Both the position numbers and the translations under genes were made by a program. Below, piece by piece: positions 1 through 12,864 of a DNA stretch of 12,864 bases. The notes below the pieces were generated by a model. That model did not search any database and was not told the origin of the DNA. It saw nothing but the letters and a program-made list of their open reading frames with translations. The stretch spans positions 1 through 12,864 of the forward strand of contig JAUQYZ020000208.1 in the NCBI GenBank assembly GCA_030587475.2, written 5' to 3'. This stretch comes from Candidatus Sigynarchaeum calidifontis (lineage in GTDB: Archaea; Asgardarchaeota; Lokiarchaeia; Sigyniarchaeales; Sigyniarchaeaceae). How positions within the stretch are numbered: the first letter of the stretch is position 1; each line of letters begins with the position of its first letter.

Positions 1-54
1 ACAAAAAAAAGTATCGTTTTCCCTGGTGGTAAAAAATGGGCGCCTAACGGCCTA

Positions 55-63
55 TTATTTAAA
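55..63 (+). promoter_or_regulatory. Putative archaeal TATA box for the 51-aa gene
   Basis: TTATTTAAA at 55-63, about 55 nt upstream of ATG 116, leaving room for a leader that contains the SD-like GGTGA (103-107). Confidence 0.55.
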
Positions 64-115
64 AAAAACGACTCGAATGAAATCCGTGCAATCAAAACCG
101 TTGGTGAAAGCGAAC

Positions 116-271
116 ATGGATGGCGAATTGAAGAAAGCGATCGAAGCGGGTACTTCCCTCAAAAAAGTAGACCAGGAAGAACTCAAGAAAAGGGAAGAAG
201 AAAAAAAGAAGCGCTTGGAAGAGTTGAAGGCACTGGCTGCGAAATTGGAAGCACAAGCGCCAAAAGAATGA
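116..271 (+). CDS. Small 51-aa protein: WH2-like motif (ELKKAIEAGTSLKKV) followed by an E/K-rich helical or coiled-coil tail
   Basis: ATG 116 lies 8 nt after GGTGA; upstream TATA; downstream T-run; purine-rich coding-like composition. Protein MDGELKKAIEAGTSLKKVDQEELKKREEEKKKRLEELKALAAKLEAQAPKE. In-frame ATG 77 is an alternative start. Confidence refers to the CDS; function is inference. Confidence 0.8.
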   Translation: MDGELKKAIEAGTSLKKVDQEELKKREEEKKKRLEELKALAAKLEAQAPKE

Positions 272-280
272 ACTATATCA

Positions 281-301
281 CTCTTTCTCCATTATTTTTT
301 T
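281..301 (+). terminator. Pyrimidine-rich/oligo-T archaeal terminator candidate
   Basis: CTCTTTCTCCATTATTTTTTT begins 10 nt after the stop at 271; T7 run at 295-301. Confidence 0.55.
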
Positions 302-7822: not shown

Positions 7823-9415
7823 TCACATGTCGCTGGAATCGAGCGTCCCGATATCCAGGGCCTGGAAAAGCATTCGCAAGTTGTCCATTATCTCGAGCAA
7901 ATAATTGTCGGTCAAGTTATAAAAAAACACGGACTTGCGGGCATTCTGGCTCGCGCCGAGGACGGAGGACAAGTCCAGCTTGGATAATAGGTCAGAATAT
8001 CTTTCTTTTTCGCATAGAATGCCGATCGAGCCGGTAAACGTTTCTTTTTTTGCAGACTGGAACAATATCTTGAGAAATTGTGCGAACTTGGCCATCTCCT
8101 CCGTGCTCTTCAGCTTGCGTGCATCGATGAACCCGAGCACGCCATCCAAGTCCTTTAACAGCTCGATCTGCTTGTAAAAGTATTCCTTTTCCGAGATCTC
8201 GATCACCACGAGGGACATGCCAAAGTTGAACGTGTAGGTTTTCGACATGCTCGCGGCCTGGAGATCGGGGGATCGATCCATCTCGAGAAACACCTGCAAG
8301 ATCGGATCGAACAAGGATTTATTCTTGACGAGGCCAAATTTCAAGTTTCCCCCGGATTCGACAATACCGGCCTTGACTTCCTCCTTCAAGCTTTGAAGCT
8401 CCTTCGCTTCCACTTTCTTTGCTTCGTGATCCACGAGCTTGTAGGCGAGCAAATTAAATGCATCGGAAACGTTTGACCCGGTAAGTGCCGAAGTCTCGAA
8501 ATACGTGAATCCGTTGGCGTTCGCGACGTCGCTTATTTCCTTTTCATGCACGACGCGCTTCGCTGCCAGGTCGCTTTTATTAGCAAGCAAGATCGTGGGA
8601 ATGTCGCCGCCGGCGAACCGCTTTCGTTCCTCGTCCCATTTCAGGACATTGTCGAAAGATTCTTTGTTCGTGATATCAAAAACAATAATACACGCCTGGC
8701 AACCAGCATAATAACTGAGGCGCACCCTGCGGAAATAGGCTTGCCCACCGAAATCCCAAATCGAGAAATTGACCCTTGCTTTTCTCAATGGCAAGTCGAT
8801 GGAATTTGTGGTAATGCTAACGCCGAGCGTCGGCAAATAATTCTCTTTGAACTTGTTCTCGGCATGACGCAAGATGAGGCTCGTCTTGCCGACGTTCTGG
8901 TCCCCGATCACGATGATCTTGAAGGAAAAATTGCCGCTACTAGACCGAAGCTCGAAGAAATGATCGCGGAGCATCTTCTGCTCCTCCTCGTCCGTGATCA
9001 CCTTGATGAGGGGGATGTCGAGTTCCACGGCTCGCCCTTCTAATATATTCCGAACCTTTTCGGCGGTCAAGTATGCATACGGCAAAGCCGCGTCGACCGA
9101 GGCATCGACCTTCAACGCGACGCTGAGCACGATGTTTTTAACCTTGATGAATATCAACCGGTTCTGGTCGGTGTCGAAAAACGAGACAGGGCCAGAACTC
9201 GTGACCAGCTCCTTCGTCAACCTATCGAGAACATTCTTAATCGATCCCGACACTGCTTTCAACGAGGAATCGGACTCGCCTTGCGATGCGATGGTTTCAT
9301 CCTTGTCGCTGTCGATCGCGATGATGGCCTGGGTGTCGGCGACGCTATGAATGAAGTTCGAGAAGAGTATTTTTATGGACTCCTCGGCAGAATGGTCTTT
9401 CGACGAGGCTATCAA
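7823..9415 (-). CDS. Multidomain Rab-like small GTPase: N-terminal roadblock/longin-like domain, Ras-superfamily G-domain, C-terminal alpha/beta domain (probable degenerate GTPase)
   Basis: G1 GDQNVGKT (8905-8882), G2 YLPTLG, G3 WDFGGQ (8758-8741), G4 NKSD, G5 ETSA; Rab-like YYAGC and IVFDIT. TTG start is uncertain. Confidence 0.9.
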   Translation of the reverse strand: MIASSKDHSAEESIKILFSNFIHSVADTQAIIAIDSDKDETIASQGESDSSLKAVSGSIKNVLDRLTKELVTSSGPVSFFDTDQNRLIFIKVKNIVLSVALKVDASVDAALPYAYLTAEKVRNILEGRAVELDIPLIKVITDEEEQKMLRDHFFELRSSSGNFSFKIIVIGDQNVGKTSLILRHAENKFKENYLPTLGVSITTNSIDLPLRKARVNFSIWDFGGQAYFRRVRLSYYAGCQACIIVFDITNKESFDNVLKWDEERKRFAGGDIPTILLANKSDLAAKRVVHEKEISDVANANGFTYFETSALTGSNVSDAFNLLAYKLVDHEAKKVEAKELQSLKEEVKAGIVESGGNLKFGLVKNKSLFDPILQVFLEMDRSPDLQAASMSKTYTFNFGMSLVVIEISEKEYFYKQIELLKDLDGVLGFIDARKLKSTEEMAKFAQFLKILFQSAKKETFTGSIGILCEKERYSDLLSKLDLSSVLGASQNARKSVFFYNLTDNYLLEIMDNLRMLFQALDIGTLDSSDM

Positions 9416-9468: not shown

Positions 9469-10560
9469 TCATTCGATCCATCGAGATAAGTCCGCAGAAA
9501 CGTGCACCTGGGAATCATCAAGGTCAGTCACGCGCCGGGCATTGAGCAAGCACATTGCTGTCTTGATTTCAGCCTTGATCGTCTCTATCTCCATCGTGCA
9601 CGCGTCGCTCGATACCACGTCCATGGTTGCCTTCACGTCGTTCAGTGCCGCGATGAGGAAAGGATAGGCGAGGCCCGCCATGTCCGCACCAAGGCACAGT
9701 GTTTTCACGACATCCAATCCAGTGCGGATACCTCCGGTAGCCATAATAGATAGCCCCGTGTATTTCTTCGCGAGCATGATCGAGACGGGCGTGGGCGTCC
9801 CGCAGTCCTGGAACGTCTTGCCGAGGTTCCGGGTGTATGGATAAGATGCCTCGTCGACGCGCACGGCTTCCACCAGTGAGAAATTCGTGCCGCCAAACCC
9901 GCCCGTGTCCACGGCAGCGACCTTGTAGCCCCGCAAGATTTCGTAATCGGACCGGGAAAACCCCATGCCCACCTCCTTGATGATCACGGGGATATCGAGA
10001 TCATTTTCGATCGCTTCGATGACATCCATGACCTTGGAGAAGTTTCGATCCCCTTCTGGTTGCACGAGCTCTTGAAGCTTGTTGAAGTGGATAGCAAGCG
10101 CATTTGCCTTGATCATGTCGATGCATTCCTTGGCCGTGTCGATCGGCGATTTGGATTTGACGATCTGCGACATGCCTATGTTAGCGATGAGGAAAAGGTT
10201 ATCGGACACGTCACGCGCGATCTTGAACGTGTCCACGAGTTCATAATTGTCGAGGGCAACCCGCTGGCTTCCGACACCAAGGGGGATGTTTGACTTGGCA
10301 CATGCACGAGCGAGCACCTCGTTGATCTTCTTGCTTTTCGGGTGACCCCCGGTCATGGCCGCGATGTAAAACGGGGCATCGAACTTGCGCCCGAACAGGT
10401 GTACCGAGATGTCGATGTCGCCAGGATCGACCGCGGGAATCGCGTCTGGGTGTAAATAAACATCGTCCATCCAATTGCGTGATGATTGCATCCCGTTTTC
10501 CGTGATGAGCTTTATGTGATCGAGTTTCCTGTCTTCGTTGGATTTACGTTCGTTCGACAA
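9469..10560 (-). CDS. fni: Type 2 (FMN-dependent) isopentenyl-diphosphate delta-isomerase
   Basis: RKLDHI, AMTGG, GVGSQR, ANIG, HFNKLQELVQPEGDRNF, KEVGMG, GGTNF, TGGIRTGLD motifs. Confidence 0.97.
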   Translation of the reverse strand: MSNERKSNEDRKLDHIKLITENGMQSSRNWMDDVYLHPDAIPAVDPGDIDISVHLFGRKFDAPFYIAAMTGGHPKSKKINEVLARACAKSNIPLGVGSQRVALDNYELVDTFKIARDVSDNLFLIANIGMSQIVKSKSPIDTAKECIDMIKANALAIHFNKLQELVQPEGDRNFSKVMDVIEAIENDLDIPVIIKEVGMGFSRSDYEILRGYKVAAVDTGGFGGTNFSLVEAVRVDEASYPYTRNLGKTFQDCGTPTPVSIMLAKKYTGLSIMATGGIRTGLDVVKTLCLGADMAGLAYPFLIAALNDVKATMDVVSSDACTMEIETIKAEIKTAMCLLNARRVTDLDDSQVHVSADLSRWIE

Positions 10561-10573
10561 GTTGTTCGCCTTC

Positions 10574-11422
10574 TCAAGATTCTGCTAACGTGATCCGCGT
10601 ACACGGCACGGTTTTACCTTCGATCAAGCCGCTAAGCGATGTTCGGTTGCGGCCACTGATTAAGAATGCCAGAATTTTCTTATCCTGGAGCCGTCCCAGC
10701 TCGCGTAACTTGCCAAAGATCCCGCCCGTGACATCGATCGTAGCCCCACCATTCTGCGCGGTTGCCTCGAGATCAACAAATCCGCCAAACCCGGGGACGA
10801 GGAGTTTCCCGCCCTTGACGACCACTTCGGGTATCAATTTCGCGCCATGGTCTTGCTTCGGGTCTTTATCGAACAGACCGTCGACATCCATAAGATATAC
10901 GATGCGATCCACGTGATGTTTCATTTTTTTTGCCAATTCCACGATGATCGCGTCACCAGACAGGATGCCAAAACCTCGCGTGATGTCAATCACCGGGTCC
11001 CCGTACAAAACGGGAACGAACCCTTGATCGAGCAACGCGTCCACGGCCTCGAGGTTGGCGATGTTCGTGAGACCATTATCGAGGATGAAAATTGCGGAGG
11101 GTTGTACCGGGTAGGCGGGAATGCCGTGTTTCAAGAATGCCCCCACGATGGCCACGTTTAATTCCGCCATCGCCTCGTGCGTCTCGCAGAACCCTTTTGA
11201 TTGGTCACCATGCCCTGCTTGCCGGCCAAGATGGATGCCGTACTTTTTCGCGACGGGATGGCCATAAGAACCCCCGCCATGCACGATGATGAAGGGAAAT
11301 TTGGCCCCTTCGAGCTGCGTGCAGATACCATCGATAACATCTGCATGTAGCGACCTCGGCACGTTTTTATCCGAGAAACAGCTTCCCCCGAGCTTGATGA
11401 TCGTGATGTCCCTGCCCGTCAT
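10574..11422 (-). CDS. ipk: Isopentenyl phosphate kinase (amino acid kinase family)
   Basis: IKLGGS, HGGGSYGHPVAKKY (IPK-diagnostic His), PVLYGD, ILSGD, DVDG, DVTGG; lies between mvk and fni; TAATG stop/start overlap with mvk. Confidence 0.95.
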   Translation of the reverse strand: MTGRDITIIKLGGSCFSDKNVPRSLHADVIDGICTQLEGAKFPFIIVHGGGSYGHPVAKKYGIHLGRQAGHGDQSKGFCETHEAMAELNVAIVGAFLKHGIPAYPVQPSAIFILDNGLTNIANLEAVDALLDQGFVPVLYGDPVIDITRGFGILSGDAIIVELAKKMKHHVDRIVYLMDVDGLFDKDPKQDHGAKLIPEVVVKGGKLLVPGFGGFVDLEATAQNGGATIDVTGGIFGKLRELGRLQDKKILAFLISGRNRTSLSGLIEGKTVPCTRITLAES

Positions 11423-12375
11423 TACCCGACAACCGTTTTAATTGTCTTGTATCCCTTCTTTTCGATGGCGTTCGCCACCTTATCTTGCAATTCCCTGCCT
11501 GGTGTCAGGCAAATAACAAGGCCCCCGCGCCCGGTTCCGGTTAATTTCGCCCCGTATGCCCCGGCGGCACGCGCGGCGGCTATTATTTCCTCTATCTCTT
11601 TCCCGGAGACTGTTAATTTCGCGAGCAATTCTTGATTCTTGTCCATCAAGGCCCCTACTTTTTTCCAGTTCTCTTCCTTTATCGCTTCGACTGCTTCTTT
11701 TTCCAACATTTCGTATTCGTTAAATACAATATTGATTGTTGGATCCGTCTCTTTCAATTTCTTGACATCGGCGACGACATCCTTCGTCAGCGCGGTCTTG
11801 CCGGAGTTCCCGAGAACGATTTCAACGGGCTTTTTTACCTTTAGGAACTCAAATTTATTTTCCGCGCCGGCAAGGCCTTTTTTGAACAAGAGAAAACCGC
11901 CAAATGTAGCGGCGGTGTTATCGATCCCGCTCGGGGTGCCGGATCCTGCAGTTTCCCCCTCGAAAGCCGCCTTGTTTATCTGGGCATCGTCAAGTCCTAG
12001 ATCATATTCTTCGTTTATCGCCCTGGCAATTGCCACGGCGCATGCCGCGCTCGCGCCGATCCCCGAAGCTGCAACTAGATCCCCGCCAAGTGTTATCTTT
12101 ACCCTATCGCTAACGTTCAAATATTCGAGAACCCGCTTGATAAGCGCATCGTATTCCCCCCTTTTTTCTTCCTTGTATCCTGGTGTCGCGGGGCGATTAT
12201 CGATTAATTCGTATCCACCTTTACCCTCGATCCGTTTTACTTCCGCGGTGGTCACTTGGCCTAGAGCACAAGGGATACCTTCCAAGCCGAAAACGACGAA
12301 GTGCTCGCCGAACAATATGGTTTTGCCGAACCCCTTCCCGCTACCCGTGTGACCATCACCCCATCGATCATGCAT
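11422..12375 (-). CDS. mvk: Mevalonate kinase (GHMP family)
   Basis: GKTILFGEHFVV, SGIGASAA, GTPSGIDN, GAKLTGTGRGG. Start uncertain: ATG 12375 overlapping the reductase stop, or ACG 12348 (see findings). Confidence 0.95.
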   Translation of the reverse strand: MHDRWGDGHTGSGKGFGKTILFGEHFVVFGLEGIPCALGQVTTAEVKRIEGKGGYELIDNRPATPGYKEEKRGEYDALIKRVLEYLNVSDRVKITLGGDLVAASGIGASAACAVAIARAINEEYDLGLDDAQINKAAFEGETAGSGTPSGIDNTAATFGGFLLFKKGLAGAENKFEFLKVKKPVEIVLGNSGKTALTKDVVADVKKLKETDPTINIVFNEYEMLEKEAVEAIKEENWKKVGALMDKNQELLAKLTVSGKEIEEIIAAARAAGAYGAKLTGTGRGGLVICLTPGRELQDKVANAIEKKGYKTIKTVVG

Positions 12376-12864
12376 GACCAAGTTCCTTGTATATCTCCAC
12401 CGCGACGTCCACGCGCACCGTGCCCCTCTCGACCATGCGTTGAATGACGCGCTCGTGGAACTGCTCGGGGATCCCGGCCATTCGCACGACGTTCTTCGCG
12501 TGGAGCTTCATATGACCCTTTTGTATTCCCTCGGAGACGAGAGCGCGTAGTGCGGCGAGGTTCTGTGCCAGGCCCACCGACGCTATGACCTGGGACAAGG
12601 TCTGGGCGCTGTCGATCTCCATTATTTTCAAGCATAGCTGAGCAACCGGGTGAGTTTTCGTGGCCCCTCCGATGATCCCGACCGCGACGGGCATCTCGAT
12701 CTCGCCGACAAGGTTACCATCATCATCAACGTGGTACCTGGTCAATGGCCTGTAGGCATGGTTCCACGCGGCGTAAGCATGCGCGCTGGCCTCGACCGCG
12801 CGCGTGTCATTGCCAGTCGCACGGACAACCGCGCTCGCCCCGTTCATGATACCCTTGTTGTGCG
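12368..12864 (-). CDS. mvaA: Hydroxymethylglutaryl-CoA reductase, class II (bacterial-type), 5' part outside the window
   Basis: Frame is open to the window edge: HNKGIMNG...ATGNDTRAVEA.AHAYAA, GGATKTHP, LAQNLAALRALVSEGIQKGHMKLH. Confidence 0.95.
   Translation of the reverse strand, partial: HNKGIMNGASAVVRATGNDTRAVEASAHAYAAWNHAYRPLTRYHVDDDGNLVGEIEMPVAVGIIGGATKTHPVAQLCLKIMEIDSAQTLSQVIASVGLAQNLAALRALVSEGIQKGHMKLHAKNVVRMAGIPEQFHERVIQRMVERGTVRVDVAVEIYKELGHA

Follow-up and report, generated by a model that had tools for sequence, protein, structure and literature searches.

A near-universal 50-residue protein of a Lokiarchaeia order is probably a WH2/beta-thymosin-like binder of actin monomers

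In eukaryotes, WH2 and beta-thymosin modules buffer actin monomers and drive nucleation. Thymosin beta-4 is laid out as motif, extended linker and C-terminal helix, and the tandem-WH2 nucleators (Spire, Cordon-bleu, JMY, VopL/VopF) usually carry three to four units. The WH2 domain is disordered when free and folds on binding, its helix occupying the actin cleft between subdomains 1 and 3 (PMC4506460), and its motif has been defined as L-basic-basic-T/V (PMC9433394). Asgard actin control is credited mainly to profilins and gelsolins (bioRxiv 2025.11.30.690169; PMC13716822), and the two-domain gelsolins contain a WH2-like LKKT motif that binds actin and can do without its basic residues, as in LVDV and LKDV (PMC9433394). 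In Pyrobaculum, the C-terminal peptide of arcadin-2, a protein of about 200 residues, places a helix in the hydrophobic groove of an actin homologue, in reverse orientation to thymosin, and was proposed as a thymosin analogue (PMC5173319). The initial annotation of the DNA described here knew of no free-standing archaeal WH2 protein. This held for the literature searched, in which a free-standing archaeal counterpart of WH2 or beta-thymosin is undescribed, but WH2-like elements as such have been described in archaea, namely the gelsolin motifs (PMC9433394) and the arcadin-2 helix (PMC5173319).

The window, i.e., the whole stretch of 12,864 nucleotides that was analyzed, is the start of a contig in the 4.99-Mb genome of Candidatus Sigynarchaeum calidifontis. 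The Lokiarchaeia order of this genome includes the cultured Promethearchaeum, Lokiarchaeum and Harpocratesius. The 51-aa open reading frame that had been annotated near the contig end was confirmed with its start, and the TATA-like stretch, the GGTGA word and the run of seven T reported with it are all present (Table 1). AT-rich TATA-like motifs also precede many orthologues. A Shine-Dalgarno-like word was found in 25 of 28 orthologous loci (loose pattern, no null computed), and 25/28 have a T run of at least six within 60 nt 3' of the stop codon. A promoter and terminator scan of the locus was uninformative, the scanner being bacterial and the host archaeal. A longer in-frame start, GTG at 26 (81 aa), was rejected since the orthologues begin at the position of ATG-116. 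The 51-aa ORF is a real gene under purifying selection, with 24 synonymous and 6 non-synonymous codon changes relative to the same-genus orthologue (genome G001). Shortness and low complexity would suit a spurious frame in K/E-rich sequence, but such a frame is hardly conceivable in view of the purifying selection, matches in more than 150 genomes and five peptides of the orthologue from L. ossiferum.

Table 1. Features of the microprotein locus (positions in the window).
Feature	Position (nt)	Strand	Basis
Putative archaeal promoter, AT-rich TATA-like stretch	53..63	+	sequence only
Shine-Dalgarno-like GGTGA, 8 nt 5' of ATG	103..107	+	sequence; orthologous loci
Microprotein CDS, 51 aa, stop included	116..271	+	ATG 116; synonymous excess; orthologue detected by proteomics
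Predicted N-terminal WH2-type helix segment	122..151	+	AF2 helix 3-11; conservation; N-WASP WH2 alignment
LKKV, LKKT-type motif (family pattern L-x-K-V)	158..169	+	conservation; extended in AF2 model
N-cap D19 and 28-residue helix (residues 20-47), second predicted binding element	170..256	+	AF2; conservation
Putative archaeal terminator, pyrimidine-rich tract with T7 at its end (295-301)	280..301	+	sequence

Since the contig ends 115 nt upstream of the ATG, the stand-alone status of the gene was taken from G001 and G003, two relatives in which an AAA-ATPase-like ORF precedes the gene and is read divergently. Its usual neighbours are an acetyltransferase and pelota, but the neighborhood varies between families; the microprotein is therefore not part of a conserved operon, and that reading was rejected.

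Other genes of the window were noted in passing. An N-terminal remnant of a WD40 beta-propeller lies at 355-543 (+; 45% identity over 60 aa, E 1e-13), and its intact counterpart (339 aa) is found directly downstream of the orthologue in a same-genus genome (L002:419-1438, -). A 134-aa longin/roadblock-like protein (740-1144, -; Pfam Fuz_longin_1, E 0.035) is encoded convergently with the microprotein, and two further genomes of the family have it at this position as well. At 7823-9415 (-), a 530-aa protein combines a Ras/Rab-type GTPase domain (residues 166-326) with an N-terminal region that appears roadblock-like by eye. To judge from its appearance, 9469-12847 (-) is a mevalonate-pathway cluster comprising type 2 IPP isomerase, isopentenyl phosphate kinase, mevalonate kinase and HMG-CoA reductase, the last cut by the contig end.

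The claim of WH2-type spacing, L-KKA-I-EA-G-TS-LKKV, with the codons of L5, I9 and G12 at nt 128, 140 and 149, was borne out and exceeds chance. The pattern arose in 5e-6 of 200,000 shuffles of the protein, and a search of all six frames of the 5-Mb genome with a slightly broader one returned this ORF alone. A relaxed pattern was present in 41/67 homologues versus 0.03 expected from shuffles. The caveat that LKKV may arise by chance applies to the bare tetrapeptide (1.8% of shuffles) but not to the whole pattern. Positions 5 and 9 (L5, I9) hold hydrophobic residues in 99% of the 67 homologues, and G12 is kept in 82%, followed by L15 in 94%, K16 in 24%, K17 in 82% and V18 in 75%. K16, the first basic residue, is variable and often acidic, which speaks against an actin-monomer binder; LKKV itself occurs in 13/67 members and the strict L-basic-basic-T/V form in 14/67. 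Thus, the hydrophobic and glycine positions were conserved as anticipated, and the WH2 positions of the motif were kept as L-x-K-V rather than as LKKV. The second WH2 of N-WASP also deviates from the strict form. Where WH2 usually has the pair LL, the stand-alone forms have LK.

AF2 models often display bound-state helices. The model of the 51-aa protein has two helices, 3-11 and 20-47, joined by an extended stretch at 12-19 (mean pLDDT 89). The initial annotation had proposed to check whether conservation peaks in the WH2 segment. It does not do so there alone, since tail positions equal or surpass it: among the 67 homologues, E29, K30, K32 and L37 exceed 90%, E36 reaches 99%, R33 is invariant and position 30 is K or R in 100%; L40 and L44 are also conserved. 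L23, K30, R33, L37, L40 and L44 share one face of the helix. The initial annotation gave nucleation as a second option, should the E/K/L tail dimerize two WH2s. A homodimeric coiled coil presenting two WH2 motifs and nucleating filaments would fit one continuous amphipathic helix with conserved L37, L40 and L44, and has a precedent in the dimerized WH2 proteins VopF and VopL (PMC4506460). It is nevertheless very unlikely, because the helix offers only about two hydrophobic heptads, K30 and R33 lie on the same face, and tandem and fusion proteins carry the tail helix internally, while Hermodarchaeia have most of it replaced. K30 and R33 on the hydrophobic face with L37, L40 and L44 suggest that the predicted helix would rather bind an acidic partner than form the core of a coiled coil, and the tail looks like a partner-binding helix instead of a dimerizing one.

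Pfam was searched with its curated cut-offs (23.1 bits for WH2, PF02205; 24.8 for Thymosin, PF01290; 32.3 for DUF3006, PF11213). The WH2 search proposed as a check did not place the protein in the family, as it scored 14.4 bits (E 0.031), and it had no Thymosin match. Among the full-length members, 6/67 matched WH2 at E <=1 and 21/67 matched DUF3006. The sub-threshold scores count against a monomer binder, and together with the excess of DUF3006 matches they favor a non-actin partner (ribosome, chaperonin, GTPase or nucleic acid), the WH2 likeness then being convergent or accidental. That the tail is the most conserved part and that the usual neighbors are an acetyltransferase and pelota points the same way. 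When the proteins were divided, however, the DUF3006 signal vanished and WH2 became stronger. WH2 was the top match of the window protein's N-half alone (16.3 bits, E 0.008); 4 of 10 N-halves matched it, one of them above the cut-off (24.9 bits, E 1.5e-5). The best Thymosin match, that of the Harpocratesius N-half, remained below the cut-off (15.4 bits, E 0.017), and C-halves alone gave no Pfam match of note. DUF3006, matched by the window protein with 14.7 bits over 27-66 of 67 profile positions only, was rejected as a matter of composition, as were H-NS-like matches. IF1 was rejected as well, with no IATP among the families listed in the 28-member scan or among the top 25 listed in the 67-member scan and no IF1 chain in the PDB at E <=10, and no other family with a function was matched. 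Taken with the lack of a conserved operon, a non-actin partner is unlikely.

Searches of the PDB pointed to WH2. The N-half of the best-scoring relative matched only WH2 proteins, i.e., N-WASP (E 1e-9), Spire and MIM, and the best match of the family profile was N-WASP (E 0.018); neither search returned an arcadin-2 chain. In the ESM Atlas, the nearest named clusters were Thymosin (0.84-0.85, and 0.85 for Promethearchaeaceae members), a similarity at the level of a lead. Foldseek with the 51-aa model gave no meaningful match, and the PDB search with a full-length relative (P0003) gave coiled-coil noise only. Across 301 Asgard genomes, the Pfam WH2 model found nothing above cut-off and missed the family almost entirely. 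Its matches in a conserved 740-aa protein of family f26 sit inside a larger domain.

The family profile matched 142/153 genomes of the Lokiarchaeia order, nearly always as a short stand-alone frame and usually as a single copy, and 19/19 Hermodarchaeia genomes. Stand-alone members are ORFs of 49-66 aa. Profile-profile comparison joined the forms of the order and of Hermodarchaeia (probability 88%, E 3e-6). In the other 227 Asgard genomes, the same query gave two weak matches only, though those groups have actin; the lack of a stand-alone homologue in most Asgard groups with actin argues against a monomer binder. A genome-wide scan with the family alignment confirmed nothing, a single pattern being too generic. 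A search of 1.84 billion proteins with the profile gave 78, two of which are unrelated N-half matches that carry WH2-like repeats, one above the Pfam cut-off. P0082 and P0091 were not counted as relatives, since only their charged tails match. Named members are hypothetical Asgard proteins such as DSAG12_00453 and WP_371806818, with the exception of one automatic label; there was no named homologue from outside Asgard archaea, and most metagenomic matches were without taxonomy.

Compared with WH2, the family shares the amphipathic helix L-x3-I-x2-G followed by L-x-K-V and aligns residue for residue with the WH2 of N-WASP and Spire, LKKV standing at the N-WASP spacing. Like WH2 (N-WASP, WAVE, WIP, MIM, Spire), it occurs singly, in tandem and fused, and tandem units regain paired hydrophobics at the helix start (LL, IL or LM). 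It differs in that the microprotein is a whole free protein of an archaeon, mostly below the cut-off and variable in the first basic residue, and in the conserved 28-residue helix right after the motif. With beta-thymosins (thymosin beta-4, ciboulot, actobindin), it has in common a free, charged chain of about 50 residues arranged as helix, motif and helix. The WASP-type Gly link prevails in most members, including the window form, and a longer, thymosin-like link from helix to motif is found in Promethearchaeaceae. The Hermodarchaeia forms, in which most of the long tail helix is replaced by a non-helical-looking linker, run from the motif through a 9-residue linker to a short C-helix and resemble the layout of thymosin beta-4. 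However, all members stay below the Thymosin cut-off, and in the window form a single residue separates the motif from the long helix, with no extended linker between them. In addition, Asgard tandem units repeat every 45-48 residues, and L. ossiferum contains far less of the protein than of actin. In contrast to the gelsolin motif, a linker between gelsolin domains, the microprotein has its own WH2-type helix and no gelsolin domain; arcadin-2 belongs to another lineage and another actin. The microprotein thus passes neither the WH2 nor the Thymosin cut-off, and the long conserved helix is its own feature.

Fusions and a tandem relative tie the WH2-like unit to actin. First, one to four copies are fused to a profilin domain, in two distinct layouts; this domain matches profilins of solved structure, among them those of Odin and Loki (E 7e-9 to 2e-5). 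The window's genome encodes a Lokiactin with intact WH2-binding surfaces (cleft and strand motifs) and three profilin-like genes. The unit is also fused to small Rab-like GTPases, LRR and ribbon-helix-helix domains; these are not cytoskeletal on the face of it, and fit actin sensing and another partner equally.

Several further proteins with such units were observed. NikA-like ribbon-helix-helix fusions, alone or with LRR or a Rab-like GTPase (L119:2143-2565, L120:2389-3357, L122:2434-2790, L123, L124; P0073, P0079, P0089), might, speculatively and by analogy with RPEL proteins, be actin-sensing transcription regulators. A protein of about 250 aa (L029:2506-3252, L030, L121) with a coiled coil, a proline-rich linker and the unit at its C-terminus recalls the WASP-family layout and has no Pfam match. 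An ankyrin-repeat protein (P0085, L126:3001-5997) has five WH2-like repeats (Pfam 40.8 bits); it is encoded on an 89-kb metagenome contig, within a series of ankyrin genes that have no introns. In another Asgard family (f11, probably Thorarchaeia), a conserved protein of 315 aa has a WH2-like segment within its chain, with LKKV or LKKT at the segment's end (L111:2222-3022, L112:1754-2686, L145:1191-2135); the protein belongs to no Pfam family and its WH2 score is sub-threshold.

Second, 8/14 Promethearchaeaceae genomes encode a tandem protein of about 480-490 aa (488 aa in the cultured L. ossiferum) with nine clear units and a degenerate tenth, spaced 45-48 residues apart. Its model consists of helices of about 37 residues with 9-residue breaks and no compact fold (pTM 0.17), each long helix leading straight into the next WH2 helix. 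Like the tandem-WH2 nucleators, it has several units and is non-globular; it differs from them by its nine to ten units, by rigid helices in place of short extended linkers and by having no other domain. The tandem protein was absent from the window's own genome in the search made. Searching for homologues with it was swamped by candidates and yielded one match, and its alignment retrieved nothing from PDB sequences.

Gene order and monoisotopic mass served to place the L. ossiferum copy in the published Lokiactin co-immunoprecipitation (co-IP) table (bioRxiv 2025.11.30.690169, supplementary table 2). With 56.41 kDa it corresponds to GNAMCCOK_04085, and its neighbors (47.75, 47.31 and 57.98 kDa) match to 0.01 kDa. 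GNAMCCOK_04085 was enriched 23-fold (log2 4.53, adjusted p 0.002; 44 peptides, 366 spectra) at moderate overall abundance. It ranked fourth among the archaeal proteins, above the bait (4.44) and all five enriched gelsolins (3.97 to 2.08); a search of the preprint and of its Nature version for this protein found nothing. Antibody cross-reaction was rejected, as the protein scored below the shuffled mean against both epitopes. The co-IP used formaldehyde cross-linking (bioRxiv 2025.11.30.690169), and a histone-like protein (3.96) and uL1 (2.69) also ranked high; the rank is therefore no proof of direct binding, and a non-actin reading takes the enrichment as such background. The 23-fold enrichment with 366 spectra at moderate abundance and the profilin fusion in two layouts speak against it. 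That the strong signal belongs to a paralogue not found in the window's genome weakens the case for the microprotein itself.

The short L. ossiferum orthologue is GNAMCCOK_02436, annotated with 8.24 kDa from an upstream GTG; its neighbors match. For this orthologue (L027:3213-3419), annotated with a 14-residue N-terminal extension, the Shine-Dalgarno word, the orthologues and RefSeq point to 55 aa. It was detected in 16/16 L. ossiferum proteomes. Its mean was 18.4; the profilins had 19.5 and 17.4, and actin had 21.7. At about 3 log2 units under actin, the value is low for a bulk sequesterer. In the Lokiactin co-IP it was enriched weakly and not significantly (log2 0.57, adjusted p 0.105), which counts against a monomer binder, and it was quantified in 3/3 actin pull-downs versus one IgG control. 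With log2 values of 1.07 and 0.31, the profilins in the same co-IP bracket it.

The main functional rival to monomer buffering is a bridging of two actin subunits on the long-pitch strand, by a nucleator, end binder or filament stabilizer; actin binding is common to both. The tail would then be a rigid spacer and a second cleft-binding helix, the protein amounting to about 1.5 WH2 units. A helix of about 30 residues is roughly 45 angstrom long, similar in scale to the rise per actin subunit (55 angstrom). The long helices of the tandem protein run directly into the next WH2 helix. The Hermodarchaeia profile aligns with tandem N-WASP (E 0.11) from the motif through the linker into the helix of the following WH2, with some 29-30 residues between the helices compared with 28 in the N-WASP construct, but this weak alignment alone is not significant. 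Moreover, the L37/L40/L44 stripe of the Loki form is out of register with the WH2 helix of the next unit, and a filament-bound protein would be expected above 0.57 in a cross-linked co-IP. Bridging is therefore rather unlikely.

The microprotein is probably a WH2/beta-thymosin-like binder of Lokiactin monomers. Its N-helix would lie in the Lokiactin cleft between subdomains 1 and 3, the L-x-K-V motif would run along the actin strand, and the long helix would climb the monomer's face. Being a single unit whose C-helix is conserved, the free protein may bind the monomer 1:1, for which buffering would be the simplest role; among monomer-binding functions, such buffering or sequestration by the free unit is slightly favored, and profilin-like delivery or end binding makes up the remainder. 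The tandem form may be a multivalent scaffold for actin, bind filaments or nucleate them. The proposal of a free-standing WH2-like microprotein was thus supported by its conserved positions, by named homologues confined to Asgard archaea and by the links to actin.

We consider it possible, though less likely than not to be the full picture, that a WH2/beta-thymosin family of Asgard archaea is homologous to that of eukaryotes and comprises a free buffer peptide, a ten-unit multivalent filament scaffold or nucleator, profilin fusions, ribbon-helix-helix and GTPase fusions able to sense G-actin, and WASP-like and thymosin-like variants. Since no stand-alone form was detected in other Asgard groups, convergence and loss are both compatible with the distribution. 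The finding bears on when WH2-type control arose and on how Asgard cells buffer and nucleate actin. A near-universal 50-residue gene and its ten-unit relative would add a third class of actin regulator, in organisms that are cultured and crawling. If the homology is true, WH2-based actin control would be older than eukaryotes, and the ten-unit protein would become a candidate archaeal actin nucleator.
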